Shown in pieces: positions 10,437-62,649 of a DNA stretch of 64,000 nt; the stretch's first letter is position 1, and each line of letters opens with the position of its first letter. Below the pieces are notes generated by a model that saw only the letters and a program-made list of their open reading frames with translations, was not told the origin of the DNA and searched no databases. A program made the translations under genes and the position numbers. This DNA is from Yuukianura sp. NJ FZ-2021 (lineage: Eukaryota), in the NCBI GenBank assembly GCA_046563655.1, contig CM102284.1, forward strand, positions 7,502,001-7,566,000, given 5' to 3'.

Positions 10437-10890
10437 CTTGTACCCTTATAGGACCCTTAGACTTTAGAATTGTGTCTATTTTCAAAGTTTGGTAGCATAT
10501 TTTTGAAAATCCTGCTTTTTACAGGATTTTAGACGAACTTTTTTAATAAAAGTTTCATAGATACTTGGCAGCATCAATATAAATATTTGACTTGTTGCTA
10601 TGGCGACAAGCCATCCCCTTCCATTATTGTTTGCGATGGATGTAAACTTTCTCATCCTGTTCTTTTTTTTCGAAAACTATTCAACTTTTTGAAAATTGAA
10701 AAAAAAATCATAATTTTTTCGAAAAAGTTATTCAGAGGAGTTGAATTTGTGAAAAAATGGCTAATTTTCGAAAACTGGTTGGCGAGCCCAGTGACCAAAG
10801 TTTCCGTACGTCACTGATTGTTGATTAATCTTTAGCAAAAATTCACAATTGATTTATACTATTGTCGTTGTTTTTATAGATACTGTGGAC

Positions 10891-11940
10891 ATGAATCCGG
10901 ATGGACGTCATGGCCGTGGTGACGAAATGTCGCCGTCAAAGCAGCGACACAAGCAAAATGAAGATGAGTTGCTCGGAACAGAATGGGACAAAATCAAGGT
11001 CAACGGGACGAGAGTTGCTTTTTCGTATGGAAAACCCGCTAAAAAGTTAGAGCCGAAGACGACACAAGGATTCGTCACCGCTGCTGGTCCGCGACTGCCA
11101 CCTTTCACCTGTAGTCTCTGCTTGGGCCCCGTGATTGAGGTCATGACCTTGAATTTACTTTTCAAAAACTTCAAAATTCAAACAATTAATTGACATTTTG
11201 AACTTTTCCAGGCAACCATTCCCCTCTGTGGCCACAGCATATTTTGCCGAAAGTGTATTGAAGAGTGCAAGAAGCATTTCAACGCTTGTCCAGTTTGTGG
11301 CGGATCTCTTGGTGACCTTGTTCGAGTGTACGAAGTGGACATGGTCATGGACGAGTACTTTGCGCATGACGCTTCGTCAGACGACATTCTGCGATATGCT
11401 GTTGCCAAGCAGAAGCGATTTGCTGAGCTTCTTGAAGCAACGGAGGCTCAGAAGACAAGTTACCGAAAAGCCCTGGTGAGGAAGCTGGAGCTGATTTGTG
11501 TTCGGTTTCGGACGAAGGGCGTTGGTGCTGGACTTGGAGCCGTCGTGAGCCAAATGTGTTGCCGTGCTAGAAGCATTTCCAGTACCAAGATTCAAGGCCA
11601 CTTTTGCACTGGAATTGTGATGGGCATTGTCATCGGCTTGATTATCGTTCTGTTTGGAGGCAGTACCAGTCCCGGCACAAGATTAGTCAACTTCTGCTGG
11701 AGTCACATTGTAGATGGATTCTGTAAATTCAGTAACCCCTGTGCTCAAACGGCAGGTAACAGTTGTTAATCCACGTAACCTGAGTTAATTGACATGAATT
11801 CTAGTAGGTCAAAGGTCATGCCATGAATCTTCATTCCAATAGGTGCACCACCTCCTCCTCTTCCTCCAGCATCCTTTGATCTCTGGGGTTGGCTTCGCTG
11901 TTTGATACCGATTCCAGGTTGGATTAAGTCCTGGTTCTAA
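10891..11940 (+). CDS. RING-HC (C3HC4) E3 ligase with hydrophobic TM segment, paralog A, about 296 aa
   Basis: Exons 10891-11139, 11212-11755, 11843-11940. RING CSLC..E|ATIPLCGHSIFCRKC..CPVC. TM GIVMGIVIGLIIVLF. Confidence 0.8.
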
Positions 11941-12479
11941 ATGCTCACAGCCCATTTCAACCACTCAAGAGTTCTATTACCAAGAAACGTACCAAAAATG
12001 CTTAAACAATGTGAAGTAATTAAAAAAAACAAACAATTAGTTGTTTCAATTAAAGGTCATGTAAAAAAAATTCTAGAGTTTTCGTAGTGTTAATAGGGGA
12101 CGCTATTTGGCTTAGTAGTGGCGCCATCTTTTAATTTTTTTCCCGTATCAGCTCGAATCAGCTGATCTCTGTTTTCATTCACGTTTTATTTTTCATTTTG
12201 TACGTTTGGTTATCCATTTTCGTTCTTAGTATTATGTCTAACCTCCATCCATTCACAACGTCAAGTGTTAATTAAGAACTCATTAAATTAATTAAAACAT
12301 ACGCACAACAAGTTACAAGGAGATTGTTTTCTAGAAGTGTGTTCATCCTTCATCGTAGAAACCGGTTATTGGTAAGTCATTTCTTTTTTAAGGCGATGTA
12401 ATTCTCCATTCAAAATCGTCTTTTTTGAATGAAGATTAATAACAATTGAATGAAGAACTACTAAAATAGGATTATCTCA

Positions 12480-13618
12480 ATGCAGGATATGCCGAGATTT
12501 CGCATATTCCGCCGTAGCGGACGACAAGTTCTGTCTCGGCAAGATGCTCAATCTCCTCCAATCATTCCTCTTGACGACGAAGACTCTGAAGAAGCTTGGC
12601 TGCGAAGGTTTATAGATGATGCAGCGTCTCCGTACCTTGTAGCCGCTGCAAGCGTTAGAGCTTCTGCGGGATCAACCTCATCTACGGGTTCAGACGTTTT
12701 GGTCAACTCCGATACGGATAGTAACGACGGTGATTCAATGACTACAGCTACTGGCACACGTCATCCCGCGGTGTCATATGCTAACGCGCCATTTGAGTGC
12801 CCAATTTGTTTCGATGCAGTTCATCAGGTGACTGACTACATTTAAGAGTTGTTAATCGGTTTGTATTACGAGTTACTATTCCTATGTTTTGTTTTAGGCA
12901 ACCGTCCCGATTTGTGGACACGTCTTCTGCCAGCAGTGTATCAAAACTTGCGTTCGACGCGGGAGCTCCGTTTGTCCAATCTGTCGCGGATCACTGCTAA
13001 TGCTTACTCGTGTCTATGACATTGATAAAGTAATGGATGCTTACTTCGTCTCAGTACAAAATGGCGGAGGGCCCATTTTCGTTACCCCGCGGCCAATCGC
13101 TTTTGGGGATCAGGATCAGGAACGGATTTCCGTTCAAGCTCGCAACTATAGCCTGAAGCAGCGCGTTCGAATCGAATTGGCTAACATTCGCTTGACGTTT
13201 CAATTGAAGGGTTGGATCGACGGGATTCAATTAATCTTCAAACGAATCTTCTTCATCATACGCTTGAATTTTCCAAAGACGCTTGTGATTGGGATTGTTT
13301 GTGGAGCAACGATTGGAATCGTTTTGTGCCATGTCGCTCAACCGCCACAAATCTGTCCGCCTCACGAATGTCACCTGAAAATGACAGCATGGGAACACCT
13401 TGTTGCAGCTATTCGATCTCGTAATTACTAGACTATATGACATCGTTATGATTTCTTAAAAAAGTGTTTTTCTTGTTTCAGTTCTTGGCCTCGTGCCTGT
13501 TCCGGAACCAGCTTTTGAGATTCGCTATCCACAAGTTGTTCAGCCGCAAGTCTTCGATGATGTGTTGGAGTACATTCAAGCAAAGTTGAATGCATTTGGC
13601 AAATTGCTCAATTACTAA
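12480..13618 (+). CDS. RING-HC (C3HC4) E3 ligase with SIM-like motifs and TM segment, paralog B, about 335 aa
   Basis: Exons 12480-12827, 12898-13420, 13482-13618 (or stop at 13431 if the last intron is retained). RING CPIC..Q|ATVPICGHVFCQQC..CPIC. TM LVIGIVCGATIGIVLC. Same intron position in the RING as paralog A. Confidence 0.8.
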
Positions 13619-13737
13619 TGGCCGAAACTACTTGCGTCAAACGTACACTTCGCCTTCATACAAATCAACAAATCGTTCTTCCTTCCGTACAATTAATTGG
13701 AACGTGAGCAATAACTGAAAACTATATATGTATATAT

Positions 13738-14336
13738 TTACTGGTTTAATTGATTAAAATATGTTTTCATCATGTACAAAAAGAGGAGAATAGGAATAGA
13801 AGTAGTGAATCCCAATACGAGGATTGCGACAATAGGGGCCATCGGAGATTGTGCTGAATTGGTGCCATGTGTATTCACATGTTTTCCGCTGTCCATTTCC
13901 GGTTTTGTTGGTGGTAGCGTTAACGACGTTGTCGTGACCTTCCCATTGACTTCTACCTTCTTACCAAGGATTGCCGCCAATGCTTCAGTATTTTCAGTCT
14001 TCTGGAGTACTTTCATTAAGGTACCAAATACTGCCAAACTATTTTTTTCCAAAATGATTTCGTAGAGTTTGATACATCGTTGGCTGTTCGTTGTGCACTT
14101 TTTCTGAAAACGGGTATTTTATTATTTCAGATCAGAGTTCGGTGATGAAGTACCAACAAAAGGAATGTTTTACCTACAATCAACGAAATGTCGTACAAGT
14201 CAATTGCGTCTTCATCTTCAAGATACTGAAGAACTTGGCTGAGATTCTTTGTTGTTTTGGACAAGTTGACTATATTGGCTTCGATGGCGAATCGGCTTTT
14301 CCGGTCCATTGCAGAATCAAATGACCCGGTCCACAT
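13738..14336 (-). CDS. CARD-like death-fold domain, T/P/S-rich linker, C-terminal TM anchor; 165-174 aa
   Basis: Exons 14336 (or 14309)-14178 and 14103-13738; 74-nt phase-0 intron GTAGGT...TTTTCAG. Spliced product MDRKSRFAIEANIVNLSKTTKNLSQVLQYLEDEDAIDLYDISLIKKCTTNSQRCIKLYEIILEKNSLAVFGTLMKVLQKTENTEALAAIL follows the six-helix CARD hydrophobic pattern. Tail PIVAILVLGFTTSIPILLFLYMMK. Confidence 0.7.
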
Positions 14337-15103
14337 TCTGATGAGGTCACTGCTAACTGCGACGAAAGTTTGTACGCGGACTAAAGTCGATTTGTTCCCA
14401 TCCTCCGTAATTTATAATCATTCTATCATTCTTTGCAAAGTTGATACCAGGTGAGATTGATGAGGCGAAGGTGATCAGTTCAAAGTACAAAAACTAAATA
14501 ACTTTTACAAACTGCGATTAGATAGTCGTAAAGTGCAAAAATATCCATTTGTACTGATCGTGACCTGAACGAAGGGTCGATGTTTTTTAGTTTACTTGCA
14601 TATGTCCGTGTCCGCCTCGAATATGCAAGTGATTGATTGGTCAGAACGACAAGTAGACCAGTCTTATGTCATACGCATCAATGTCCAGAAAGCTGCTAAT
14701 TTATGGTTTGCGAATGCATAAGAGCTGCAATCGACGCAAATTAAGTAATTGGTGACGCAAATTGCTATTTTTTAAGTAAACTGGTTTAGTGTGAGAGTTT
14801 AGGTAGTTCCGTCTCACAGAATTTGCTGCTCTTAACCGGAGAAAAGGCGCGAATCTACCCGAATGTTTTCTTCTCGTCATCTCATCCTTCCTGTGTCCTG
14901 TTCGTTTGTCATTGTGTGAATTTAAGTTCGTTTGATCGTAATCGTTAAGTTATTAATTGCGCTAATTAATACTGCGTAGTGTCATCAATTTATGTCATTG
15001 GTTTACCACTACACCGGGTACTCCGCTGCTTCCAGTGCTTTGAAAGGTAAGCATACGATCTTTTAACTCTATGATTTACTATGACTCTATGGTCAGTCTA
15101 TGA

Positions 15104-15810
15104 CATCCGGAATGAAACCGGAATCAGCTACCGATTTTTCAAAAATTTCAGCTACCGATTTCGGTAGCAGATTAAAAATGGCGGATTGGCGGAGCCGAAA
15201 AAAAAAACGTGAATTTTATCGCATGATATTAAAAAATCATTTTTTAAAAAAGAGATTACATGACCGTATTCGAAGGTGAGGCGATGTAAACTGCAGGATA
15301 ACCGTCGTTTTTGGTTGGAAATCTCTCAAAATGTAACTTAAAGCGAAGAAAAATCGGTTTCTGGGTCAAAAAACCCGAGAAAAATAGTCTTCTGGAGTCG
15401 TGAAGTTCTGACGATGAGAACGAACTTTTACGAAAAATCTTTTTCCAAATTCAAAGAACATTAGAAAAATCGGTTACGGAAGTCGAACTCGTCATAGAAA
15501 TCGTCCTCTGGAGGGAGCCGAAACACTGAGAAAATCAATTTCTGGAGACGATTTACTCTTTGAAAAAATCGATGTAGTAGTCGCGAGACCTGGAAATGCA
15601 GCTTTTTAAATGTTTCGCGCCTGTGGCGCGAAAGAAAATCTGGTTTAAGAGTTGTAGAATCACCCGCGCCGTAGGCGCGCAAAATTTTTCGTTTTTGGAG
15701 TAAAAAAAGACTCAATTTTCGAATTTTTCAGCTACCGATTTCGGTAGCTGACAAACCGACAATTTTTAAAGTGCTGCCGAAATCCTATTGTCGGTAGCTG
15801 ATTCCGGATG
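15104..15810. mobile_element. Non-autonomous foldback/MITE-like element with inverted termini and internal hairpins
   Basis: 15118-15134 ccggaatcagctaccga is the perfect reverse complement of 15791-15807; catccggaat 15104-15113 pairs with 15801-15810. Hairpin cagctaccgatttcggtagc at about 15149 and 15729. No TSD identified. Confidence 0.65.
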
Positions 15811-16124: not shown

Positions 16125-17571
16125 ATGGAATCGAAATTACTGGAAGGTGACAAGGATGAGTGGTTTTATCATTCGCTTGGGAGGTACGTCTTACTACAAT
16201 CGATTTATTAAAAATTTTACATTGAATTGAACTTCATTTAGGGTTTGTGCTGTTTTCAGGTACAGGAATCTGTATATGTTTGAACTAGAATTCCCAGTGG
16301 ATGCGATTGAAGTAATCAACGAAGTCAATTTCTGCATCTCCGGGATTCAAAACTATTCCAAGAAATGCGAAATTCTCCAGTTGTCGATTCCACCAAAGCT
16401 ATTGCCGAAGGACGTGGAGGAAGGACTTTGTAAGGACAGAGATTTTACGATCATCAGTGGAGGATACACATCGGCCAGAATCCTTCAGGTTCATTTTCTC
16501 ATTCACCGATAATAACTAACTCTAAGCGATTAAGCCTATTCTGTTTCTTTCACAGATAAAACCAATTCCGGCAGTGGACAATTTGGTGGCCACAACACAA
16601 ATCGGTGTCAATGGAGTGACCCTGTTCCAACTAGGGGACGATGAACATGGTGAGAGCTGTTTATAGGTTCAATTTTAATCGTAATACCTTCGTTGAAGTC
16701 TCAATTTCAATTTGATGTTCAATTAGCTCTGGTAAAGGAAAAATCTACCCTGGATCTTCCTGAATCTCTTGGAGCTGGTGTCATTGACGGATATGAAAAC
16801 CGTTTAATTGCCACCGGTACTATTGGCGACACTCTCTACGAATGGATAATGGACACATCCGGAAACTTCTGTCTTTTCCCTCACAAGCTCCCTAAAAGCA
16901 ACGGCAGAATTACAAAAGTTAAATACTGTGATTCCTCCACGGTATCTTTCTGTACAGAATCCGGAACTGTGGCGTTATACGACACTCGAAGTGACAAGTT
17001 TATCCTGGAACTCAAGGCTACCAAAGCTGCCGAACTACTTCCTGGGATTCAGTATTCTTACGATACCATCGCTGCAAAGCAAATGATCGGCATAGTCGAT
17101 TCCTGTGGAGGCTACGAAAGTTACGACATTCGCAACATGACATCGTCCGTCCTGTGCCCTCGAGTCAATTTACCATGGTACTCCAGCAGTGATGGCATTT
17201 TGACTCAGAAGTTCAACATTCAGTATGATCCACAAGGTTGCTCAGGGGGTCCTTCCAATTTCATCGTCACTGGAATGAAGGAAGATTCAGTTCACATTTA
17301 CAGTGACACTGGAACGGAAGTTATTCCGCTGTTTACCCATGATGGTCATGCCAAGGTTGTCACTCACGCTCTTTGGCATCCGACCAGTGACAGGCTGATC
17401 CTGTCTTGTTCACTTGATGCTGTTTTGCATGCTTGGCAATATGAAATGCCTGACCCATGTCCAGATGAAGTGGGGAAAGTTACTGACGACGACTTACCGA
17501 AAACAGAAAATTCCAATAACACAGAGGAAGATGAGAAGATGACAGGAGCACCGCTGTTACGGAGTAGCTGA
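16125..17571 (+). CDS. WDR73: WD repeat protein 73, about 408 aa
   Basis: Exons 16125-16183, 16260-16488, 16556-16649, 16727-17571. DEWFYHSL, EILQLSIPPKL..GLCKDRDF..GG and LFTHDGH..VTHALWHP..LILSCSLDAVLHAW match remembered WDR73 motifs. Confidence 0.85.
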
Positions 17572-17886: not shown

Positions 17887-20595
17887 ATGATGTCGCAAAT
17901 TTTTCGCTGGACAGCGCGTCACCACTGTCACCTCAAATCTAGTCGGTTTCTAACAACATGGTCTCCACTTGCAACTGCGTTCAATACGAAGCCACTCAAA
18001 AAAATGACGTTCAAAGGAAAGGTAATTTCTTTCTAATTTTTCTCCAGATCATTCAGGGTATCAGGGTTTGAATTCTTCTAACTTCGGTGTGTTGTTTTTT
18101 ATTATCATAGGCCGGCCTATTTGGAATTCCAGAACTAAAGGAAGCCAGTGGATTCGGCTTGCTCAAAGAAAATGCTATAATTGACTGTGAAATGTTAGTG
18201 GAGGAGTGCATGTCACCAAGCAGAGGGAGACGAATGGTCGAAGTTTTTGACAACCTGTCGAATACACTTTGTAAAGTGGCGGATATGGCTGAATTTGTGA
18301 GAGTGGCTCATCCTGATCACAGATTTGCTGAAGCCGCTGAAGATGCTTGTCTTTCCATAAGTCGTCTAGTTGAAAAGTGAGTAAAACTCAACTTTTGTGT
18401 TTTAGCGCAGAATTACATGATTAACTTTTTACAGATTGAATACAAATCGGGACCTCTATTTAGCTCTAAAGAATATCACGGGACACAACGATACTTTTGA
18501 GACTGATGCTGTTGATGAGCACGTTACAAATCTGTTTCTGTTTGACTTCGAGCAAAGTGGAATCCACTTGGACAGTCAAAAACGTTCAGAAGTTGTTCAG
18601 CTGAATGAACTGATTCTATACACGGGTCAACAGTTTAGTGCAAATTCCACACGACATGTTGCTGTTGAAAGGGATTCCTTGCCTCCTGGCGTCAGAAATT
18701 TGTAAACACACAGTACTAAAAATTCTGTTTATTTGGCTGGAAAATGTTTAACTGTTTTGTTTTTGTTTAGTTTTCCGCAAGACGGGAATAATCTTATCAT
18801 CACTGGCCTGTTCTCAGACGCATATTCGGAGAAAGCCAGAGAAACTGCTTACAAAGTGTACTTGAGACCGAATCCTCGTCAAGACGAACTGTTGGTGACC
18901 TTGCTGTCAGCTCGAAATCAATTAGCAGAAGTTTGTGGATTTCCATCTTATGCACACCGGTTAGTTTTATTAAATAATTCCCTTTATCGCAAGATCCTGA
19001 ATTTGTGAAGTTCGAAGTCTCGTTTGATTGCCTTTTTTAGAGCTCTTCAAGGAAGCTTAGCAGAATCTCCGACACTTGTAGCCAAATTCCTGGAAGATCT
19101 GGCTGATCTGCTTCTGCGACGTGCTGAAACCGATTTTTCGTTGATGACACGCATGAAGGGAAGTCTGGTTAACGTTTGGGATCCACCATTTTACATGACC
19201 GAAGCGAAGCGAACGCTGCTCCATGTGGATCGTTCTGATTTCATGCCGTATTTCTCTGTTGGAGCTTGCATGGAAGGACTGAATCTCTTGTGTCAAACTC
19301 TGTTCAATATTCAATTAGTCAATGAGGAAATGGAGCCTGGGGAAGTGTGGGACAGTGACGTTAGCAAAGTTTCAGGTAAATTCATTTTCATTTCATTTTG
19401 AAAAACTTAAAAAAACAACTTTCGTTTCTAGTTTTTTGAAATTTTTGAACAGTTGTACACGCCAAGGAAGGAAAACTAGGACATATTTACTGCGACTTTT
19501 ACGAACGTGAAGGTAAACCGCATCAAGACTGTCATTTTACGATTCAGGGTGGAAAGCGACTTGAAGATGGAACTTATCAAGTAAGTAATTAGTTTCTAAC
19601 TTTGAATAATTATTTGATAAACGGGAAATGTAACGATTTTCGTTTGTTTTTAGAATCCAGTGGTTGTGTTAATGCTGAATTTTCCCAGGATGTCTGGAAA
19701 TACTCCGTCACTCCTGACACCGTCAATGGTTGATAACTTATTTCATGAAATGGGCCACGCTCTGCATTCAATGATGGCTCGAACAAAGTATCAACATGTC
19801 ACTGGCACGAGATGCACAACAGACTTTGCCGAAGTTCCGTCAATTCTCATGGAGTACTTTGCATCAGATCCTCGCGTTCTGGCAACATTTGCACGTCATT
19901 ACCAAACTGGAGAAATTATGCCGGAGAAACTGCGACAAAAATATTCAGTGGCTAAACATGTCTTTGCTTCCTCGGACATGCAAATGCAAAATTTTTATGC
20001 TGCTTTGGATCAAACATTGCACACGGAACGATTTCCACTGGAGAAACCAACGATTCAGATTCTAGAGGAAGTGCACACGAAGTTCTATGGGCTGCCTTAT
20101 GTCCCACAAACGGTAAAACCGCTTCTATGAAAATGAATTTTTATAAAAATGAACGAGGCTTGGAAGTTTTTCTTGAAAAAGGAGACGTTATTGATGTTTT
20201 CATTTTGATTTTCAGGCTTGGCATCTCCGATTCGGGCATTTGGTGGGTTACGGTGCCAAGTACTATTCGTATCTCATGTCACGTGCCGTAGCTTCTTGGA
20301 TTTGGCAAGAATGTAAGTTTTTACTTAAAAAAAAACTTGGAACTAGCAGTATTTATTTCGTACTCTTTTGCATCTGAACTTTGTGCATTTAGACTTTGTG
20401 GAGGATCCACTGAATTCTTCAAGTGGTGACAAGTACAGGCAAGGTGTACTGGCTCACGGCGGCGGTGTTCCAGCAAAACGACTTGTGTCCAGTTTCTTAG
20501 GCAAAGCAATAACGTCAGACAATTTGACACAAGCGCTCATACGAGATTTGGACTCGACTCAGAAAAGACTGGACAAGTTTTTGGAGACGCAGTAG
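17887..20595 (+). CDS. MIPEP: Mitochondrial intermediate peptidase (M3 metallopeptidase), multi-exon
   Basis: Basic presequence then [35 protein letters not shown] zinc motif; [39 protein letters not shown]. Confidence 0.95.
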
Positions 20596-24081: not shown

Positions 24082-27510
<3,429 letters not shown>

Positions 27511-28059: not shown

Positions 28060-29243
28060 TCAAGCATAATAATATAGGAAAAACAAGTAGTCAGCAGGAT
28101 TTCGAGGTTTCGGACATGCCCAGCCGTTGTCACTGTAGTTTTCGATTCCAACAGGTTGATTGAAGAGATAGTTGTGGTCATAGTCATAGTAGTCGGACAA
28201 TAGAAAGGAGATGACGAATCTTAGGAACAAGTAGAGTAGGAGCACTCCAACGGAAACGATTACCACGGTCCTGGGAACGGGCGACAGAATTGGTTCGTAC
28301 TGATTGTGTTGAATGAATCCTTCCCAACCACCACCGTCAGACAGAATCCATTCTCCCATGATCTGTTCAACGATTAGTCCAAAAGTGTCGACAACTTCTG
28401 TGACCCCTTCAGTATATCCTGCTTCAACAGAATCCACGGCCAGGGCTCCACAAAGACCAAGTAGAGAGATGAATTTGCCCCAGTTGTTTTCAACGTCTCC
28501 GTCACTGTTTTCAAAGACGTATTTCGCAATGGTCACAACAACTGCTTTGGGTTTCATGTCGTCAGGAATTCTGATTCCAATCTGAAAAGATATTGTTAGA
28601 GTGGATTAAAATGAGTAATGGGTTAAAGTTAGCTGTGATTTCGAGATCTTACCTTGCTTACAACGGAATCATAGATTTCAGGGTACTTGGACCGGAGTTC
28701 GTTAACAACAAATTGTACTGGAGGATATAGGTAATCAGCGTCTGGTTTCGATAGAAGTTCAACGGCAGAACGGAGTCTTGGAGCGACGTTGGTGATCTGC
28801 TCCAAGTACTGCTTCTCTTTCAGTCGATCAATGACATGTCGCGATGCAAGTCCTCGAGCCTGTGGAAAACAAATTACATATTACAGGGCGCATCATCGAC
28901 AAAAACACTGGAGTTTCTCGGTTGTTGACGTCTGTTCAATTCAAATCTCAAATGAAAGTTAATAATTAACTTATTAATTATTAATAGACTACTTAGCTAA
29001 ACTTACTTCGTCACCAACTTTTCTGCATGCCGGACTTGGCGCTTCTAGAATTTCTCTGGCGTATGACCAACTTTCATGATCGTAGTAAAGTCTGGATATT
29101 TTGGCCAACGGTGTACTCCATTCCTCGTCAACTTCCTCCACTGCAAAGTTCATTTCCGTGTATCCATTATCAAAATGATGAGCACCATAACCAGAACCAC
29201 TTTCCATTTCATCGCAAATTAAGCTTTCACTAAACAAATGCAT
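28060..29243 (-). CDS. Divergent Bok/Debcl/Buffy-like Bcl-2 family protein, 309-321 aa
   Basis: Exons 29243 (or 29207)-29007, 28859-28653, 28581-28060, all phase 0. BH4-like EARGLASRHVIDRL, BH1 NWGKFISLLGLCGALAVD, BH2 WILSDGGGWEGF, TM TVVIVSVGVLLLYLFL. Confidence 0.85.
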
Positions 29244-30610: not shown

Positions 30611-32292
30611 ATGGACGAGTGGAAGTGGACATGTCTTTTACTTTGTGGTTTTGGACTTTTGAAGGAACTGCGTCCATCCGAGCCCTTCGTCACGGCGTAC
30701 ATAATTGATTTTAAAGATGTCACGACGGAACAGGTGAAACACAAATTTTTTAAAACAAAACTTTCGAAAATACAAATTTCTGTTTCCGTTTGACCCATGA
30801 CCTCTAGGTTATTCACGACATTTTTCCGATCTCCACCTACACTATTCTTGGAATGATCATCGTTGTCTTGCTAGTCACAGATTTCTTACGATATCGTCCT
30901 GTTATTATTTTCCAAGCCACTTCCTACGTTCTAACTTGGATCTTTCTCATCTGGGGCCAAACTTTGCTTTCACTTCAGGTAAAGGTCAAAGTTCACAAAA
31001 TTTTGTTTTCAGATCATTTTATTTACTCTGTCTCTACCACGTTTCAGATTGTCCAAGTATTTTACGGAATAGCAATTTCTACGGATGTGGCGTACTACAC
31101 TTACATTTATGCAAAGGTCAACCGAGGTCAATACAAAAAAGTGACGAGTTATACCAGAACAGCAGCTCTCATTGGAAAATTCTTTTCTGGAACGCTGTCC
31201 CAGATTTTGATCTCTCTTGACCTCATGAACTTTCACCAACTGAATTACATTACTCTTTCATCTCTAAGCTCCGCCCTCCTCCTTTCTCTTTTCCTCCCAA
31301 AAGTTCAGAGGTCGATGTACTTTTATAACAGTGAAGATGACAGTACTCGGATCGAGAAAGATCTCAAAACAGCGGCGCTGGAAATCGCTGAATTCCGTTT
31401 ACCATCTCTTTCTAAAGAACAGGCTACGTTTTACCAAAAATTGAAAACTGCTTATCCTCTGCTGTGGTCCGATTTTAAAAAAGCGTATAGAAATCCATAC
31501 GTTCTGAGATGGTCCATTTGGTGGGCCATGGCGACTGCTGGAATGCTCCAAGCTCAAAATTACATCCAAGCGTTGTGGAAGGTCGTAGAGGTCAGCGATG
31601 CAAATGCTGGATCAACCCAGTATAACGGAGCTGTCAATGCTGTTCAGTGTCTCCTGAGTATGTTCGAAACTCTTAAACTTTGAAAACAATATTTCATAAT
31701 TTCGTATTTTCTAGGTGCTATTTTTTCGTTTGCTGTTGGTCACGTCCATGTCAGTTGGACCAAATGGGGTGAAATATTCCTCTGCTTTATTTCTCTACTT
31801 CAAGGATTCGTCTTCGTTTGGCTATCGCTGACCAATTCGGTGTCAACGGCCTACGCTACATACGTGACCTTTCGTGTTTTGTATCAAGTAGTCATTACCA
31901 TTGCCAAGTAAAGCACTACTTATCAATCTGTACTTCCAAAAACCTGAAATTGCAAAATGAATTTTGAGAAAGAATGCTAAATTTTGTGTTGATTACTAAT
32001 TTCTAGTGCGGAAGTTGCTCAAGGCATCAGTAAGGACAGTTGCGGTTTGATTTTTGGAATGAACACGTTTCTGGCCTTGGTCATCCAGTCACTCTTGACC
32101 TTGATTGTTAGTGACACTAGAGGATTGGCACTTGACGAGAGGTCACAGTTCATCGTCTATGGTGGATACTTTGCTGCTCTGGGTTGTATGTTCTTCTTGG
32201 CAGCAATTGTGTCATTTATACGATCTGCAACACACTCTGAGAAAGGTCAAATGTCACCAGAGCTTGGCGGCTTGACTTGTGCCGCAAACTAA
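30611..32292 (+). CDS. SLC19A-family (thiamine transporter / reduced folate carrier) transporter, multi-exon
   Basis: LCGFGLLKELRPSEPF, LVTDFLRYRPVII, AYYTYIY..YKKVTSYTR, WSIWWA, YNGAV, LIFGMNTFLALVIQSLLT..RGLAL..QF. Confidence 0.93.
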
Positions 32293-36590: not shown

Positions 36591-39500
36591 TCAACCTCTG
36601 ACAGCGTCTACTTCTGCTTGGAGATTCTCAATTCCTTGAAGGATTCTCTTGATGTGACCTACTTTCGTGATGCCTGAAAATATTACGAAAAAGGACCGAT
36701 TGAAATTTAAGTTCAAGTTTCCATTTGCGCTGCTACAACAATTTCACCCCTCACTGAAATATTGTAAATTTTTGAATTACAATTTGACATTATTACCGAG
36801 TTCCTTCAAATCCCGTCGTTGCAGACAAATAAGCTCCGCCCCCTGAATGTCATGTCGAGCAAAATGGTATTTGTATTCTCCCATTTGCAAGTGATCTAGC
36901 CATTCTCCAACTTCACTCAACGTCCATTTCTCAACTTCTTTCGATTCTGCAAAACCAGAGAATTGTAGTAAAAAAAAATTCAAAAGTTTTCGTTTGAGAA
37001 AGTCACAAGTTTTACCTAGCGAATAATTTTCATCGCTGAACCCATCAGACCCGCCATCCGGTGTGACCTCATCAGTTTTCTTGGATGATTTCTTGTGTGA
37101 ATGCAGTTTGCCAAGAGAGAATAGCTTCTTGTGTCGTTTTTTGTCCAACTACGTGCATCCAAAAAGAAAACAAAATCCAATATTTTTTCCAATTTCATTC
37201 CAAGAACATTCTCCGCAATTTTTCTTTGAGTCTATTCACAGAACTCACATCTTCATTTTCAGTGGAAGTCGGAGAAATTCCACAATGTTGTTGGCGTTGT
37301 TTCTCTTCCCAGGTTCTTAGAGACGATTCCAAGGCCTAAAAATTATAAGATAGAGCAAAGTTTTAGAAAAATCCTTCTTATTTCAGTTTAGTTTTGTCCG
37401 ATATGTAATGTATAATTACCCGATTTCGACAAAGCATCTGCATTCTATTCTTGTGAACAATCTTAATCACTCCAGGCGGTTGAAGCCATGCTTCTCCATC
37501 CACTTGCACAGGAATCGGATCATCTCCCATCAGCGTAATTTTTATACTATGACACTGCGCAATTCGATGATGCTGGAGATTGATGAGTCTCGAGGCTGCC
37601 ATTTGCATTGAGTCAAACACAGCTACAACTTCAAGGATTCGCTGAAAATCAAAAGTATTTCCTTGCAAACCATAATATTTATAAAGTATTTAGTAGATTG
37701 TATTGCCTTACGTCATCAAAAGAAGGTGCAAGGAAACAGTCATCCTCTTTCGTTCCACCCCAAAAATTGGTCCCACCCATAAAGCTGAAACAGAAAAATT
37801 AACTTTGTTTTTATCTATCATCTAATTAATCAATTCTGACATTTTTAATTCCCTTCGAGCTAAAATTACCTTTGAATGTTGAGTATCACAATTCCTTGGA
37901 GACTCGGCAAAGGAATTCGTTTTCCATCACATTCCAGTTGAACTTTTTGTTCTAAATTTTTGCACGTTTGTTGAACATATTCTTTGCTTCCAAGCACTCC
38001 ATACCACATGAAATTCTTAGTTCGACTTCTACATTTTTCTGGATGTTCTTCTCGTTTCAAATGAAAATCTGTAACAAAAATTACCAAAATGAGCAAGATT
38101 CCACTTTGAGATTGAACAATCTGCGCACAATGAATCTTTGAATCTTACCTAGAGTGATCTTCGCATCAATCCCAATTCCAAAATAGTTGTTCAAAACACA
38201 CTTTTCGTTGAATCCAATCATGAGATCATCTTCTAGGGGGTCCATTAGCGGAGATGCAATTGCGCAAACACTGTCAGCGTTAGCCAACAGCACTTTACTG
38301 ACGATTCCACCTGAACCAACTGCAGGCCACGATGGATGTGACACCAACGGGTTGACAATTGGTAGAGTTTTCTTTTGTGACCGATTTGGGCTATGAGTTG
38401 ACGGCGAATGGCTGTCCAGAAGATCAAAAAACGAATGCTTTCCATGCGGGCTTTTTGGAATTTCTACTTCCAGTGGTTTGAAAAGTGATCCCATTGAAAC
38501 TCTTCTAGAAGCTCGAGGACTCGCTCCAAAATTTTCTGGCGAGGTAGTTCCAGTGTTTGGCGGTGTTTGTCCAGGAGATCCACTGCTAAACGAATTCGGA
38601 CTTCCTGGAACTGTCAGCAAATTAGAAGAACTCGGCGGTGACAGTGAGGCTCTTTCGTAACCTTCTTCGGTATTACTCGATGAAAAGTCGGCTTCAATCA
38701 ATTCTGATTCTGGCGTTTTAGTTGCCGTTGAACTTGATGGACTCTCTACTTCAATTGTTGGAAAGGGAGTTAGCCGTTCTGCTTCATACTCCACCAAATC
38801 CTTCTCTGACTGACGATGATCTTTTTGTACTTTGGTTTCAATTCCATCTGCACTTGTGTTTGACGCTCTTCGTTGGAGATCAGCAAATTCCATTGGAACT
38901 GGAAGTGTCATGTTCGGATCAATTGGGCTCATCACTTCAGGCGGATCAATTAGCGAATCCAATTTGCTTAGATTCTGTTCTAGAGATTCTTTTTCTGATT
39001 CCAATTGAGACACGACGAGTGACATTGGGCGAACAATGACAACGGGTGGAGAGGAAGTGGTTTCATCAATAGCTTTTTCCGCATGCTCAATGATTTGACG
39101 AACAGCCTTTTTGAGACTATTGGCCCGCAGCATCAACGTATCCCGTTGTCGGAATCGATTTAACTTTTTTAGTGACGGTGGCAGAGAAGTAATTGCTCCA
39201 ACGTCCTGGCTCTATTACACAAAAACAAAAAATCAATATAAAGAATGAATTCGGATAAAATGTCGTTCATTTTGTTTAAATTGTATTGAATTTCTGGTCG
39301 TCACGACATGACCAACCCGAGATCAACTTACATCTTTAGGTTCCTCGTCCGCTTCTTCCGCTGCTGCTGTTGCTAATGCATAGCTCTCATTATCCGTCTC
39401 TTCATGGAGTGTTTGAAGTAACGAATCTAATTTCTGGCTCAAGGTTGCACATTTTGAATCTATCTCGCTGTCCTCACTGTTAGCCCCCAGTTTTCCAATC

Positions 39501-42500
39501 ATGTCACGAACAGTTTCACAAAGAACTCTGAAAACAACGAAATTAATTAAAAATTAATAATGAGCATTCGCTTGGAAAACGAAGTGTGAATGTTTAATAA
39601 AATCATTTTGAAACTCACTTTGCTGACTCAATGACCGTTTGATTCTGATCCGACTGCAGGATATTCTGGAGATGCGACACTACAGAATCCTCGTACTGTG
39701 AAATCTGAGGTTTCATCGTTCCAGTTCCATCAGGCAGACTCTGTCCTTGACTCATACTCGGTTTCAGAAAAACTCCGCGTTCAAATGTCATGACAGACCA
39801 ACGATCCAGCATTTTCGTCGTGGCCTTCTCATATTTCTCAAGCAAATGTGGCAAATTAGCATCATCATCACAGGACGCTCCCCAGCCTAGAACTCTCGCC
39901 AAATCGTTTCCTGTTCCCAGAGGCAGCACGCCAACTTGGCATTGACGGTGCATTGACAGCTTGTCAATCTCACTCATTACCCAGCCTACGGAACCATCTC
40001 CACCACAAACCAGAATACGGAATGGCTCAAAGTGTCTGAAAAACTCCAGTCCACGTCTCGGCCCACCTAAAATCATCAAAGGTCAATGTCAATCAGTGAT
40101 CATAACTTAATAGCACAAAACCAAATAAAAAATGCTTCCAGCATCTGGTCGGATCTGACTCACCATTCATCAGATCAAAAACTTGAGCAGGATTCAGCAA
40201 CTGTTTGAATCTCCTGAGGAATTTTAACCCCTGATGATCTCCTGACTTGGAATTTACAAAAACCAGGAGCGGAGAGCATCCGGCCAAAGAACGTGAACTC
40301 TCCCACGCATCATCATTTCCTGAAAAGTTCAAACATAAATCTAGTCAATTGGGACTTGGATTTTAATTAATCCGAAAGCACAACCACTAAAACCGGAAAG
40401 GTTACAACTGTCAGTTTCTCTTTTTCTAATGTTCACTCACCTATCGTATGTAGAGCAGTTCTAGAAAGTACAAAAAAAGAACATTAGTTAATCAGAACGC
40501 TCTGAAAATCAATTAACTACAAAGACTTACGGTGGAACTATACTAATTCTTCCAACTGGACACTTCTGACACATGATAGGTTTGCATGCAGTATGCACGC
40601 AGACACGACACCATAAGCATCTCAGATCCTGCAGTCTGAAACAATTAAACAGCAAACATCCATTATCGTGCATCAATTTCCTCCCACTTTCACCAAAAAA
40701 CTTTTCAGAAAATCGTTTTTTGACGTCAAAAATTCCATAATTTTTTTATTTCATTTTTACCTCAATACAGATCCACACGTCCTCTCACAAACTTCGCATT
40801 TAGCCGAAACTGGAAGATTTCCTTCCAGCCACTGATGCGGAAGAGAAAGTGTCTGTAAAAAAAAACACAAATACATAAAATTTGCAACTTCTCTTTGCAA
40901 AAGTTGCAACTTTGCATTTTTGCAACTTACGCCATCAATGTCCTCAATTATGTCTTTGCCCATTGAAGCCAACGTCGTCCACTTGCAGTTATTAATAGCC
41001 TTCGCTGCACATCGCTTATGAGCTTTAAATTTGCAAATTTCACAGCTCAGTCCTTGAGACGTCACCCCTGAAAACAGTCACAAAAAAAACCCCGGATTTT
41101 AGCTTTTTTTTGAAAGCTGCCACTCTAACAATACGTTTATTATTTGCTACGTTTCCTTCCTGTCATTTTCTAAAGTTAACTTTTGCTTTCTCACAAATGA
41201 ATGGCTAAAGTCTTCTTTTCAGAAAAACTATTTAGAACGCTGCTGGAGCAAAAGTAAATACGGAAATAGGAAAATTATGGTCTAAAATAGACCGAAGGAC
41301 GCCTACGTTTCCCCCTTCCCTTGCCAAAAATAACTTTTGCCATTTTTTGTAATCAACTTGCCAAAAAGTCGCATCACTTTCAGGACTTTCTCGCTCTTTA
41401 GTCTCTTTAGATGCTAAACAGATGCGTTCTTAGTCAAACCAAAAAGTTAACTAGAAAACAGCAATCCACAAATCTTCCGGTTTCAACACACAACAGCAGT
41501 CTAGCAGCTTTTTATACCTTTTCAGTAAACAACATTTGCGAAAAAGTGGTTTTCAAAAATTACAGAAGCAAAAAGTACAATGGGAAACTACCTGCCAAAT
41601 GCGTTTTGCCAATTTTTCATAAATTGGACTTCAGCAATAAACGTAATATGTTTTTCGCAAATGTCGAAAATAATCAACTAAAGTTGAAGGTTATTCTCAA
41701 CATTCCAAAAATACTTCTGTCATCTTCATCCAACATGATATTTCTCTTTTCAAAAATCCAATTTTCATCTCTTTCTTTTTTTCATTTTTCCGAAAATAGT
41801 TCAATTTAGTTTTCAAATTACACAATTATGGTAATGAAAATATTTTTTCTGTTTCGTTTCATAACTTCCAGCCAGCCCCATTGTCCCCGTTTTCGATAAC
41901 TTTAAAAATTGAAATTCAATTCAAATTTTCAATAAATTTTCATGTCAGGTTTACTTTAAGAGAACAAGATAAAGAAAGAAGAGAAAGTATGCCTTCCTTT
42001 TCATTCATGAAAACTTAAATCCAATGTAGAAAAGTTTGAGTAATAAATGCAAAATTTTGTAAAATGGGAATTTTTTTTTTAAACTAGGCCACAAAATGCG
42101 ACCTAGAAACCACTCAGCATGTTTTTTTTTCAATCTTTTCAATAGAAAGTAGGCGGGAGAAAGTAAAATAAAAAAAAAACTTCGTCTTTTATGGTTTTTT
42201 TTTCTGTCGTGAGTATTTTGACATTTCCATTTCTCTTATTCCTTTCCTTTTCTCTTCTTCCGCTTCCATGTAAGCATTAACTTACTTTCAATTTCCACAA
42301 AGGAAACCAACCTTTAGCAATTGTGGAGAACTTAGAAGAGAGTCATTTTGATTTCAAAAAATGTTCAATTTTTTTTTCAAAATGCCATCTGAGCCCAAAA
42401 TGAAATTACAAAGACTTACCACAGAGTTGGTCTCTACAGACGTTACAGTAGGTTGGACGAGCGTGAGATGTTGCGTACCAGACATGACTTCCGGCAAGTA

Positions 42501-45500
42501 AATTGGAATGATCCCCAGCCTAAAACGAAAAAGTAACAACAAACAACTAGGTTAGTTTTCTGTTTACTTGAGTGTGTTGAAAACTGGAAAAGAAAATAAC
42601 TTTACAAAAATCATAACACAAACACCATGAAAGAAAGTTATAATTACAAGCATCAGCAGTCTCAAAACCACAACTTTATTTTCACAAAAAGGAAAAAAAA
42701 ACGAATCTCAATTCTTTTCATTCGAGATTCTTACTGTCTGTAACCCAATTTTTGAATCCTTCGCCATAATTTCAATCAAAAAACCAATTTTTCTTCTAAA
42801 CAAGTCATTTCGAACTTAGTACGGAATAATTCATGCGAAAATCGGAAATCAATTCACAAGTCGCAAGTCCTTGTCAACCTGTCGAAAAAATACAATAACC
42901 TTGTTGTATTTGACCTTACCTCGTAAAAATTGGAGTCACTGGCTACCCTGATGACATGGACCCATTCATCCATGACCGTACGTGACTCCGATGCCAACAT
43001 CAGCGTTCGATACGGTGTAATCACCTATTCAAAACCAAAAACCAATCAAATCATTAAGGCGATCAATCAGCCTACGACTAACCTAAAGTACCTTTCTTTT
43101 CACAAAAACTATCAATTTTAAAAGTCCCAGTAGCACCATAGCCCATGTTTTTCATGACCTTGGTCAATTACTATCTTCATCACAGTCACAGTCCAATTGA
43201 GCCAAGTCCCAGTCAGCACTTTGTCCTGCCTTACCCTCTGAGGGCTCATGTCACGTTTCCACAAAAAGCACATTTCCTCTTACACTGTGTCGTGATCCAA
43301 ATCCATTAGTAATTCTACTCTCCTATCCATTACATTCTGCACCAACCCAACACAACCTGCCAAGGTTCTTAAACCTCAATTGCCCTGCCCATTGCGAACG
43401 CATCAAAAAAAGAAGGTTCACTTTCACTTCCAATTCCAGTGGGATTCCTCCGAGTTCTACTTCGATTTCATCAGGCCGCTTCAGTTCCCATTACACAGTA
43501 ACCACACAATCACACAAAAAATGAAATGGAAAAAGAACCCGCCACAATTCGATCGAGAAACGGTGTATTTCTCTACAAAGGTCAAAGGTTAGCATGGCAA
43601 AGCGTCTTCTTACCGTCAAATCTCACGGTTGCAAAAAATCCCCATCCTAAACCAAACGAATTTTGAAAAATATCTAGTAAGACAGCCAGCCAGCGGAGAA
43701 AAGGAAATTTTGAGCTTTTCGTTTTTCGAAATCTGCATTTTGAAAAGTATAGCCTAAAAAATACTTTCTCCTGCCTTAATATTAAGCTGAAGATTCAGTA
43801 AAACTTAAATCCTGTGCCAAATCCTAACTTCCACTTCCGAATCCTACTTCCTAGGAAAAAGTAATTTCCACTTTCACCAGAATTTCAAAGATTGCTTTAA
43901 CACAGAGTAAAAGTAAAGCCATGAGATCTGGATCGTCATCTTTACTTACTCGATTAGTCATGTAGCACCCTCCGTTACATAAAATAACCTCCCACACATC
44001 ACACAAGAGACGCTTTAAGGAGGATTCCAACTTTTAGAAAAACGACTTATCCTTATGACTAAAGGTCTCATAAAAGTCACTACTTTCTCTCCCGCTTCCT
44101 TTTAACTTTTTCATTTAATCCACTCATCGTCATAAAAACATTTTTCAAAAAAACAGAAAAGAGGCGCATCTTAACCCAAGTGCTCCAAAAAGTCAACTGA
44201 ACCGCCCAAAATCAAAGTTATTGCTTGCACAAAAGAAAAAGAAGCCGTTTTTACTATTTTCCGCTACCCCGATTATGAGTGTCTCCCTTCAGCATATTAA
44301 CATTTTGGCACAAGTTCAAGCTTTTTCCGTATTTACACATAAGAAACAACGAAAACGGAAAAGGAAAAATGAAAAAAAGATCTAAAAACTTAACTTTCCG
44401 CATCATTTTTTAGTCCCTAAAGCTACTACCATTACCATAGAAGGACTCGGCGGATCTCCTTCATCGCAGTTTTTTGTGCAAAACAAAAACTTTTTCGCTG
44501 TTGATAATCGGAAATTGGTTGGTTGAAAGTGAGTGAAAGCACCGCAGTCAGAAGCGCCGTCACAACACTCAAATGAGCTTCCAAAACCCTCCACCGAAAA
44601 AAAAAATTGTCACTTCGTCACTTTCTCTTTTGTACTTTTTTAACAAAATTGCACCAAAAACGAACAACCGAAAAACAAGTCTTTTGCAGGCACCTCGTTA
44701 ACTTTTAAATAGCAAAAATTCAGGACATTCTCTTTGCGCATCCCAGCAAGACGTAAAAACCTCAATCTAAAATGGATAGATCATCCAATATTGCTACGAA
44801 AAAAAAGAAGTAACAAAAATTTCAATATTCAAATCGTTTTTCACCGTTTGAAGATACAGAAAAGCAGAACTATCTCCCCTACTTTCTATAGTTCGTTATC
44901 TTCTACTAACGAAAAGTTAGTAGAAGATATAATTTATATTCTCTCTATAATTTTTTTTTCATTTTTTTAAAAAATTTTTTGGAGCTTCCAAAAAGACAGA
45001 AAAAGTAGCCTTTGACCTGTTCCCCGCTACATTTTTTGTCCTTGCTCTTGCTCTCCCATGGCCAAGGACACTTTCATTACTTGCTCTAAAAAGTGAAAAT
45101 GTAAAAAACAGAAAAACAGGGTTAAAAACATTTTCTCCCAGAACACGTTTCTCCTCCCTGACGTAGTACTGCTCACTCGGGATTTCAAATTTCCAGGGAA
45201 AGTTCAAACGAGTCCCACATCTCTCCACTTACCAAAAATTTCAAGAAAAAAAAAAGAAAGCACTTTCTCTGAAAACCACACACGCAACTGACAGTTCCGT
45301 TTCACTTGTTTCAATTTCCTCCGAAACTTTTAGTCTCTACAGCACTTTTGTCTTTTTCGAAAATAAAATTCTCAAAACATTTTGTCTTTTTCGACAAACT
45401 GCTTAGCCTATTTACTTTTACCTTGAACTGTGATGCCGTCAGCAGTAACCGGTCACCAACCTCTTCACATTCTTAAGTTTTAGAAAACACTTCAAGTGTA

Positions 45501-60528: not shown

Positions 60529-61595
60529 CCGTATTTTCCCAAATAGTACACCTGGTGTACTAATTTTGTTTTCGACTTCTGGGGGTGGTGTACTATTAGG
60601 GACCTGGTGTATTATTAGAGACGGTGTACTAATTAATTTTTTAAGAATGAGGATTTTATTCTTAACTAAAACGTTTAGGAATCAGGAGAAAATAATTTCT
60701 AAATTACTAAAAACTACTCCACTTCGTTTTCGGAAGCTTTCAGAGTTTTTGATTAGTTCAGTTGACAATGAATCCCAGACAATCTTCACCCATTTAGTCA
60801 TCAATTTCTTGGATGGAGCATTAAAAATTAAGAATTTATATAAATTATATTTAAAAGAAACCTACGACCGTACAAATTATTAGTTATGAAATACCTTCAA
60901 ATTCCCTCCTTTTGTATACTCCTTGTCGGAATCTCCTGCTAGCCAAGAATCGTAAAGTTCGGTAATACAAGCCTTGAAGGGTTTATTCCAGCACAAATCT
61001 GGAGCTTGAATATACTTTGTACATCCCCCGGGAATCACTGTCATTGTGGTGTTGTAGCCAATGAGTTCATTTTTAGTAGATTTACTGAAGTGACATTTGT
61101 AAGAATCCCAAGCTAACAAACGATGTTTGAAGGAAAATCGTGTGAACACAGTTTTCAACAAGTCACAGGTCAGATTATCGTTCATCCAACCATTTGAACT
61201 GCTACGAATTACGATCCCAGTTTCGGTTTGAAGCTTCGCTACCTCTCGAATTCCCTGTTTGAAAACGATGAATGGTTTCAGATTTGTTCCGTCACCTTTG
61301 GCCGCTAGAACAAGCGTAGCGTGTGCCTTGTCATTTCCAGTCGACTTTAGTTGAACAGTTTTAGAGAAGTAACGTGGAGATAAACACAACAAATGAAGAG
61401 CTATAATATTAGCTCAACTAACTTCTCCGGGTGTTATACTCCAAATGCTACATTACCAAAGACCTGGTGTACTATTAGAGACCTGGTGTACTATTTGGGA
61501 CGGTGTACTAATTAATTTTTCGACTTCTGGGGGTGGTGTACTATTAGGGACCTGGTGTACTATTTAGGTATGGTGTACTATTAGGGAAAATACGG
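60529..61595 (-). mobile_element. Internally deleted pogo/Tc2-like (DDE_1) DNA transposon
   Basis: TIRs CCGTATTTTCCC(A/T)AATAGTACACC at both ends; TA at 60527-60528 and 61596-61597; repeated subterminal GGTGTACTA. Transposase fragment 60880-61392 (STGNDK, LKPFIVFK, SSNGWMN, LLAWDSYKCH, IPGGCTKYIQAPDLCWNKPFK) lacks the N-terminal HTH region. Confidence 0.92.
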
Positions 61596-62649
61596 TATTC
61601 AAATCAGGTACTACTTGGTACATCCCCAGGAGAAAGTTAAACTTCCTTTCAAACTTCCCAGGCGACTTTCACTTCCCCAGAAACTAATTATTCAATTTCA
61701 TAATTTAATTCTCTCTTCCAAGAAACCTAATTTTTCAAGAAAAACGGAAAGAAAAGCTCATGAATTTCAAAAAACTTGTTTTCAAACTTTCAAACTTTTC
61801 CAAAAATCTGAAACTTTATAATTCCTAATCCTAATTTCCATTCCAACTTTGGAGAAGAAAGTCAAAGAACAAAACAAACTTCATAATCCTCAAACGGACG
61901 CTTCGGAGAAAGAAAAAACTAATTTTACAAATTGACCTAAAATTGTTATTTCAAGATCAAAACCAGGACATTATAATGTAATTTATGAGATCAAAACCTT
62001 TAAGCACACAAGAAAACAATCCACCCTCCACATGACGTCATTACTCGATTCTTTTACAAACAACTTTCACTCTTTGTCTTTCCCTACCGTAAACAAAGAA
62101 AATGATCTTGCATGCTCCACTTCTATCAGAATCAGCCACTTTGCGTGTCTCACTCCGTCACTTCCTGCGAAAAATATTCAATGATGTCACAGAATCACAC
62201 GTTTTCTTGTGTTTTTCTGTGGGCACGTGACCTTTACTCCCCCGATCTCACTTTGCTCACTACCACACGGAAATCCTACCTCATGACTTTCTCCATCTCA
62301 TTTCCCCAGTGACTCAAGAACAAACAAACAGCGTCACCCCATTACAATTTGAATGTGACGCAGAAAACAGAAAGTGTGCGACTCATCAATTTACTTTCAC
62401 AAGACTTTCTCCTTTTCCCCGAATTTCATAAGCCAAAAACAAGTTCCACTTTTGCTCGGGACGAAATTGGAGCAAATGGGCGTGGTTTGGCTGAAATTGA
62501 TGATTCTCCATAGTAAACGAAGGACACTCAAAACGTCGTCCTTGACCACTTACTTACTTTTACTTTGGCCCAAATAATAACAATGACTCAACTCAATTTT
62601 AGTAGTTCCAAAACAATCATTTATCAAAAACTCCACCCTTTCCGCTTCT

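Follow-up and report, generated by a model that had tools for sequence, protein, structure and literature searches.

A candidate tail-anchored protein with a CARD-like domain encoded by a small two-exon gene of a springtail

Membrane-anchored CARD proteins are few, comprising MAVS, CARD19, and oyster MAVS, and they act where mitochondria, cell death, and innate immunity meet; the hexapod repertoire of death-fold proteins is thought to be small. A 64,000-nucleotide stretch of the genome of the springtail Yuukianura sp. NJ FZ-2021 (assembly GCA_046563655.1, contig CM102284.1, positions 7,502,001 to 7,566,000), called the window here and numbered from its first letter, raises the question of whether a protein of this kind is encoded in a hexapod. 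A first-pass annotation of this DNA had joined two short open reading frames (ORFs) of the minus strand into a protein of 165 to 174 residues, read as an N-terminal CARD, a linker rich in Thr, Pro, and Ser, and a hydrophobic tail with a short Lys-containing end, and had likened the arrangement to that of MAVS and CARD19. On balance, we favor the interpretation that the locus (minus strand, 14336..13738) is a real, fast-evolving two-exon gene whose product of ~174 residues combines a CARD-type domain (approximately residues 11 to 102), a disordered linker of ~40 residues, and a tail anchor, and that this product would serve as a CARD adaptor or decoy.

Evidence that the locus is a gene came from one distant relative. 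An exhaustive phmmer search of 1,835,955,588 representative proteins with the exon 2 product (P0002) returned four matches with E values of ≤0.001. One of these, P0004, is a collinear relative of 127 residues that covers query residues 1 to 115 in one stretch (E value of 1e-9, 33% identity); it derives from an exon-2 ORF on a 1276-nucleotide Joint Genome Institute contig and is annotated only as a "hypothetical protein." The remaining three (P0003, P0005, and P0006) are long repeat or low-complexity proteins matched in 9, 4, and 4 stretches, respectively, and were set aside as spurious. A word-index search for homologues with P0002 accepted 0 of 112 candidates, and a search with the A1 profile accepted, out of 248 candidates, nothing but P0004, which already belonged to the query.

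Identical residues in the alignment of P0002 with P0004 include 20 of the first 38, the two cysteines among them, and 13 of 23 in the membrane segment, where Thr, Ser, Pro, and Tyr as well as the string LFLYM are shared; the linker between the helical part and the membrane segment could not be aligned. Smith-Waterman scores were also compared with those of composition-preserving shuffles. The observed score was reached by 0 of 2000 shuffles both for the helical part (z of 22) and for the transmembrane segment (TM) plus tail (z of 10), and by 135 of 2000 for the linker (z of 1.8). The homologue and the shuffle results together indicate that the gene is more than a chance arrangement. Moreover, although only 33% identical, P0004 still has an open frame, the two conserved modules, and an end of equal length (9 residues), a pattern that indicates purifying selection on a protein. 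We consider with high confidence that the candidate is a real gene, and it is a fast-evolving one.

The proposed gene model consists of two exons and a single phase 0 intron (Table 1), and the spliced product of 165 to 174 residues read at first pass was confirmed in the sequence. Among the 43 in-frame, stop-free GT..AG pairs enumerated for the locus, acceptor 14104 occurs in four; it is the sole acceptor with a pyrimidine tract, and only 14177 of its four donors is consensus-like. A branch-like CTGAT lies at 14135-14131 within the intron, and an intron of 70 nucleotides in a neighboring RING gene shows that short introns are normal in this region. The ORF of P0004 starts two residues ahead of a conserved KKC, which fits read-through of a CAG acceptor at the same place. 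The ATG at 14336 has an A at position -3, and initiation at the second Met (residue 10) would yield 165 rather than 174 residues. Judged by sequence, the TATAAA upstream of this ATG may be a core promoter of the candidate gene; the motif shares bases with the in-frame stop by which the frame upstream is ended. Possible poly(A) signals near the 3' end are ATTAAA (13750-13745) and AATATA (13738-13733).

The C-terminal half of the product was surveyed by hydropathy. Kyte-Doolittle windows of 19 residues exceeding 1.2 were confined to residues 136 to 167 (maximum, 2.56), and the scan revealed no hydrophobic segment at the N terminus. The nine residues that follow the 27-residue uncharged run within this single hydrophobic region contain one Lys, so that the hydrophobic tail with its Lys-containing end was borne out. 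By hydropathy, the protein has the features of a tail-anchored protein, namely one TM within the last 30 to 40 residues, no signal peptide, and no other TM. P0004 likewise ends nine residues past its membrane segment with a net charge of +1, and the AlphaFold model of exon 2 places a helix (88-120) at this segment. A tail-anchor layout is therefore probable. The Thr, Ser, Pro, and Tyr residues of the membrane segment (13768-13848) are invariant between P0002 and P0004, which would not be expected for a plain anchor.

Between the two conserved modules lies the linker, which had been described as rich in Thr, Pro, and Ser. It proved to be modestly Thr-rich (7 Thr in 39 residues) with only 3 Pro, and this composition is not conserved in P0004, whose linker of 45 residues is rich in Ser, Lys, Asp, and Glu. 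A regular-expression scan of the exon 1 product (P0001), P0002, and P0004 with consensus patterns found no TRAF2/3, TRAF6, pLxIS, DxxD, or BH3-like motif.

Identification of the N-terminal domain drew on Pfam, PDB, ESM Atlas, and AlphaFold, for which the queries were the separate exon products or P0004. In Pfam, CARD (PF00619) was the top family for P0004 (E value of 0.0083), with residues 3 to 48 aligned to profile positions 40 to 84 of 85, i.e., half of the profile. As this match begins at about CARD position 40, the exon boundary would fall in the middle of the CARD and some 40 residues would be required upstream, which the 53-residue exon 1 offers. A feature search of the ESM Atlas with exon 2 residues 1 to 50 ranked CARD first to third among named clusters (scores of 0.88, 0.80, and 0.79), the best of these sharing 167 of 256 features; DED and Death clusters followed, and the ten best matches all belong to one clan. 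These are different methods applied to different sequences, and both led to the family that had been proposed beforehand, so that they constitute independent, though subthreshold, supports. The helix pattern that the first-pass annotation had pointed out would also fit that of a CARD.

The two halves of the putative domain were also co-folded. Exon 1 with exon 2 residues 1 to 52 scored 0.38 (runs of 0.38, 0.35, and 0.38), compared with 0.00 for the best of three controls, a result graded as "weak support." At least 90% of contacts agreed between runs, and the partner pLDDT (predicted local distance difference test) was at least 67. Among solved complexes, 51 of 78 attain the mark applied, compared with 2 of 108 mismatched pairs; for eukaryotes, the figures are 39 of 65 for solved pairs and 2 of 126 for unrelated ones. 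Passes at ≤0.60 comprised just 5 of those 78 solved complexes and all 4 passing mismatches (of 180). The pass may also partly reflect likeness to solved CARDs. Splice logic and this one weakly supportive co-fold suggest that exon 1 is the true first half of the domain. Overall, we conclude that the N-terminal domain is probably a death fold and that its identity as a CARD is supported, by sequence comparison, below the formal thresholds. Two cysteines at exon 2 residues 3 and 10 (14074-14097), seven apart, are invariant between P0002 and P0004, a feature not expected for a plain CARD.

Several results weigh against the interpretation as a whole. At the level of the gene, the search of 1.84 billion representatives detected no relative in named proteomes and a single relative overall. 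The window holds 75 stop-to-stop ORFs of at least 100 residues, among which the exon 2 ORF (126 residues) is unremarkable by length and only 36th in codon usage, a mid-range score; the scoring was trained on Pfam-supported ORFs of the window, which were themselves included in the ranking. Both observations would suit chance ORFs or a decaying pseudogene with no functional product. For both exons, the candidate frame nevertheless has the best codon-usage score of the six frames (0.18 for exon 1), and the purifying selection indicated by P0004 makes the absence of a functional gene very improbable. The conserved cysteine pair and the polar pattern of the membrane segment, for their part, are left unexplained by a plain anchor. 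Finally, a Pfam scan of the 123 stop-to-stop ORFs of at least 84 residues in the window, which assigned a family to 18 of them, found no CARD, Death, DED, PYRIN, caspase, or Apaf-1-like match.

At the level of the domain, every item of CARD evidence falls below the threshold of its tool. The Pfam match of P0004 reached 16.6 bits against a curated cut-off of 23.9. In the ESM Atlas, where scores below 0.9 count as leads only and the guide for shared features is 170, the best cluster lies under the first value and just short of the second, and the search with the whole of exon 2 gave no usable match. Pfam searches with the exon 1 and exon 2 products separately returned no CARD at E values of ≤10, only noise (GyrB_hook and DUF4431), as did exon 1 with read-through. 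Neither phmmer nor profile searches of the PDB with P0001, P0002, P0004, and the A1 profile found a CARD or death-fold chain, the matches being to TMs or of low score. AlphaFold models of the separate pieces formed no helix bundle: exon 2, modeled from a two-sequence alignment (pLDDT of 48.8), gave helices at 8-35, 39-46, and 88-120, with fusion of helices, and exon 1 alone gave one long helix at 12-41 (pLDDT of 79.7).

These negatives are what would be anticipated if the protein were helical, conserved, and tail-anchored but had an N-terminal domain of another kind than a death fold, with CARD signals that arose by chance. Two unrelated methods, however, ranked CARD first for two sequences, among ~25,000 families and among named clusters, respectively, as had been hypothesized beforehand, and the Pfam match, which begins at the exon boundary, takes in precisely the C-terminal half of the profile. 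We regard such a chance resemblance as unlikely. The CARD assigned at first pass thus stands insofar as CARD is the subthreshold Pfam match of P0004 and the nearest set of clusters to exon 2 residues 1 to 50, and it found no backing from Pfam in the exons of the window.

A further difficulty is that no homologue of exon 1 was found, and this, with the grade given to the co-fold, leaves room for a gene model that is partly wrong. Exon 2 would then be real, and the upstream exon or exons would lie elsewhere or begin at another start, e.g., one supplying a signal peptide that renders the domain extracellular. A Thr-rich stalk beside the TM and a conserved cysteine pair would also suit an extracellular domain. 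On the other hand, exon 1 provides, in phase and with good splice signals, the ~40 upstream residues that the CARD half needs; an in-frame stop and TATAAA lie just upstream of the ATG; and no coding-like ORF was found between 14412 and the next gene at ~16128, an interval filled in part by a MITE-like element (MITE, miniature inverted-repeat transposable element). An error of this kind in the gene model is unlikely, at a level close to that of a chance CARD resemblance and slightly below it.

If the candidate is a membrane-anchored CARD protein, its relation to the known ones can be considered. MAVS, oyster CgMAVS, and CARD19 are described as proteins that contain a CARD and that a C-terminal TM anchors in the outer membrane of mitochondria (PMC5557890, PMC6723221, PMC8997538). 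With MAVS and CgMAVS, as described, the candidate would share an N-terminal, cytosolic CARD, a nonglobular middle region, and a single TM at the extreme C terminus, and in both proteins the TM is reported to matter beyond anchoring (PMC5557890, PMC6723221). CgMAVS is described with a Death domain that follows the CARD, unlike the candidate (PMC5557890). A C-terminal tail anchor of the MAVS type is predicted for the candidate by hydropathy (residues 139 to 165 of 174, followed by nine residues). In MAVS, a proline-rich region recruits TRAFs, whereas the candidate has a ~40-residue unconserved linker without the motifs tested, and the search of 1.84 billion representatives detected no sequence homology between the two. 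MAVS is also about three times longer.

We asked on this basis how well the candidate would fit a MAVS-like antiviral adaptor, the CARD of which takes a signal from a CARD-bearing RNA sensor, polymerizes on mitochondria, and recruits ubiquitin ligases or kinases. The three-part layout of CARD, linker, and C-terminal TM is as reported for MAVS (PMC5557890, PMC6723221), and the conserved polar residues of the TM recall the TM-dependent self-association described for oyster and mammalian MAVS (PMC5557890). Against this, the linker is only ~40 residues long and unconserved, and by consensus patterns it bears no TRAF2/3, TRAF6, or pLxIS-type motif in either protein. Pfam matched PF00619 rather than CARD_2, the model for CARDs of the RIG-I/MAVS type, to which MAVS is assigned. 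No annotated MAVS was among the four matches of the 1.84-billion search, and the Pfam scan of 123 ORFs revealed no helicase-CARD gene in the 64-kb window. In addition, insects are reported to have lost all genes for RIG-I-like receptors (RLRs), and Drosophila the whole RLR-MAVS-IRF axis (PMC6723221). An antiviral adaptor of this type is quite improbable.

CARD19 (BinCARD-2) is closer in size, with 183 residues to the candidate's 174, and it is described with the same order of CARD, short spacer, and one TM, the CARD of the candidate being subthreshold (PMC8997538). It is reported on the mitochondrial outer membrane with its CARD likely cytosolic, and its residues after the TM (147 to 183, about 37) are reported as required for mitochondrial targeting, the TM being called "more central" (PMC8997538). 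The candidate and P0004, in contrast, have just nine residues after the TM, and the candidate would be a true tail anchor. Neither CARD19 nor its solved CARD was matched in the PDB searches or the 1.84-billion search. A structure of the BinCARD CARD has been solved, and we know of no CARD19 orthologues outside vertebrates.

By analogy, the candidate could play a CARD19-like structural role, in which it would sit in the mitochondrial outer membrane and touch cristae-organizing or sorting complexes through its TM and tail, the CARD being of minor importance. Besides the similar length and the CARD-plus-TM layout of both proteins, it speaks for this role that the TM of the candidate is as conserved as the CARD half when P0002 is compared with P0004, and that the TM and C terminus of CARD19, not its CARD, are reported to bind MICOS/MIB proteins (PMC8997538). 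The nine post-TM residues, compared with the 37 reported as needed for targeting of CARD19 (PMC8997538), and the lack of sequence similarity in the PDB and 1.84-billion searches speak against it, and we hold a CARD19-like role to be improbable, if less so than a MAVS-like one.

Two other groups offer partial parallels. Proteins of the ICEBERG/CARD16-18 type are soluble CARD-only decoys that arose as recent duplicates of caspase CARDs and compete in CARD-CARD assemblies; the candidate likewise has little beyond one CARD-like domain but would be membrane anchored and has no detectable caspase relative. In members of the Bcl-2 family and in Drosophila Hid, a helical or regulatory domain that lies in the cytosol is fixed to the mitochondrial outer membrane or the endoplasmic reticulum (ER) through a C-terminal segment, the tail of which is short and weakly basic. 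Their tail-anchor layout is similar to that of the candidate, whereas the fold differs and the candidate has no BH3-like or IAP (inhibitor of apoptosis protein)-binding motif. A reading as Hid or as a BH3-only protein was rejected, there being no family match and neither motif, and LEM-domain, SNARE, and Fis1-like readings were rejected because Pfam gave no such family match.

The absence of homology, the short, unconserved, and motif-free linker, and the nine post-TM residues place the candidate outside the MAVS and CARD19 families on the features tested. The likeness to MAVS and CARD19 drawn at first pass therefore holds for the layout of CARD-like domain, linker, and C-terminal TM and does not extend to homology, signaling motifs, or the length of the post-TM region (9 versus ~37 residues). 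It fits best among the few membrane-anchored CARD proteins, as a new and minimal member of that class.

For such a tail-anchored CARD protein, the following mode of action can be proposed. The protein would be made in the cytosol and inserted posttranslationally, via its C-terminal segment, into an organelle membrane; we infer a topology in which the CARD faces the cytosol, and we favor the mitochondrial outer membrane over the ER as the target. There, the CARD could make homotypic CARD-CARD contacts with another CARD protein, the likeliest partners in a hexapod being an initiator caspase of the Dronc type or a protein of the Dark/Apaf-1 type. The partner would be either concentrated at the membrane or kept from its activating complex, so that a small adaptor or decoy would tune caspase activation, and the conserved polar residues of the membrane segment may drive self-association. 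The identity of the partner, the target membrane, and the direction of the effect are what we infer from the predicted layout, and the role of a caspase-regulating adaptor or decoy is put forward tentatively, as a possibility that we rate well below the tail anchor and the death fold themselves. The RLR helicases, CARD caspases, and paralogues to which the first-pass annotation had pointed have no counterpart within the 64-kb window, according to the Pfam scan of 123 ORFs and to tblastn, which found no paralogue there with the spliced protein or P0004 as the query.

Table 1. Coordinates of the candidate gene, its predicted protein regions, and other features of the window
Feature	Coordinates	Strand	Details
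Exon 1, coding part	14178..14336	-	53 residues (P0001), opened by ATG 14336
Intron	14104..14177	-	74 nucleotides, phase 0, ATT/GTAGGT ... CTGAT ... CCCGTTTTCAG/AAA
Exon 2, coding part	13741..14103	-	121 residues (P0002), phase 0
Stop codon TAA	13738..13740	-	Ends the exon 2 frame
TATAAA motif	14411..14416	-	75 nucleotides upstream of the ATG; sole TATAAA on this strand in 13300-14700
Exon 1 product, proposed N-terminal half of CARD-like domain	14178..14336	-	~CARD profile positions 1-39
CARD-like domain, C-terminal half: exon 2 residues 1-49 (spliced residues 54-102)	13957..14103	-	Two conserved Cys
Variable polar linker, about 38-39 residues	13849..13962	-	Predicted disordered (AlphaFold pLDDT 34-43)
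Single membrane segment, spliced residues 139-165	13768..13848	-	27-residue uncharged run, by hydropathy
9-residue C-terminal tail and TAA	13738..13767	-	One Lys, net +1
Two tandem RING-plus-C-terminal-TM genes	10825-11769 and 12465-13431	+	Split RING finger each, then hydrophobic segment
WDR73-like gene	16128-17568 (start about 16128)	+	Divergent from candidate
M3 peptidase	19009-20130	+	
Aconitase	26172-27405	-	
Bcl-2 family ORF	28063-28605	-	Pfam E value of 2.1e-9, hydrophobic C terminus, ~14 kb from candidate
Folate carrier	30808-32289	+	
Diacylglycerol kinase	36780-41077	-	
pogo/Tigger-like remnant, DDE_1 transposase fragment	60883-61413	-	E value of 9e-10

The surroundings of the candidate gene were also surveyed (Table 1). 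The tandem RING genes are 31% identical over 149 residues (E value of 7e-18) and, judged by their sequences, are membrane-anchored E3 ligases. The second is convergent with the candidate, the stops at 13431 and 13738 lying ~300 nucleotides apart; a functional link between the RING genes and the CARD gene would be speculation. On the other side, the N-terminal exons of the WDR73-like gene are 85% (20 residues) and 68% (81 residues) identical to the protein of the springtail Orchesella dallaii, the only named relative, and its WD40 part only 35%; closer relatives (65% and 55%) lie on environmental or assembled contigs. The match to Orchesella points to a collembolan, and thus a hexapod, as the probable source of the window. 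A MITE-like element at 15118-15807, between the candidate and the WDR73-like gene, has perfect 17-nucleotide terminal inverted repeats, and a 14-nucleotide palindromic unit recurs inside it.

Farther away, the Bcl-2 family ORF represents another tail-anchored cell-death regulator near the candidate. The region 41400-60000 is AT-rich and contains many ORFs of 85 to 170 residues with runs of Lys, Phe, Ser, and Leu and no family match; it is probably noncoding, as intron or intergenic DNA upstream of the diacylglycerol kinase exons. At 62550-63343, a low-complexity repeat rich in Gly and Pro is open in all six frames (ORFs of 116 to 225 residues on both strands) and matches no Pfam family. Scans for Rfam families and tRNAs gave no match in the window.

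In insects, RLRs are reported to be missing and the RLR-MAVS axis to have been lost (PMC6723221). In the open-access literature, as surveyed through titles and the beginnings of abstracts, no hexapod protein combining a CARD with a TM was found described. The present gene shows that small genes with two exons of this type go unannotated, as it has no detectable relative in the named proteomes among 1.84 billion representatives. It is conceivable, though at the same low likelihood given above for a MAVS-like adaptor, that a MAVS-like hub of minimal form is retained in springtails and possibly in further hexapod lineages that branched early, in which a tail-anchored CARD polymerizing on mitochondria would relay signals from an unknown CARD-bearing sensor to caspases or NF-kB. 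Were this so, membrane-nucleated CARD signaling would not have been entirely lost in the hexapod line, and small size, rapid evolution, and lack of annotation would be the reasons why the gene was missed. If the favored interpretation holds, the springtail protein, as a conserved CARD with a tail anchor, would be a new player in arthropod caspase regulation and would provide a compact system in which the action of a membrane-fixed CARD could be tested.

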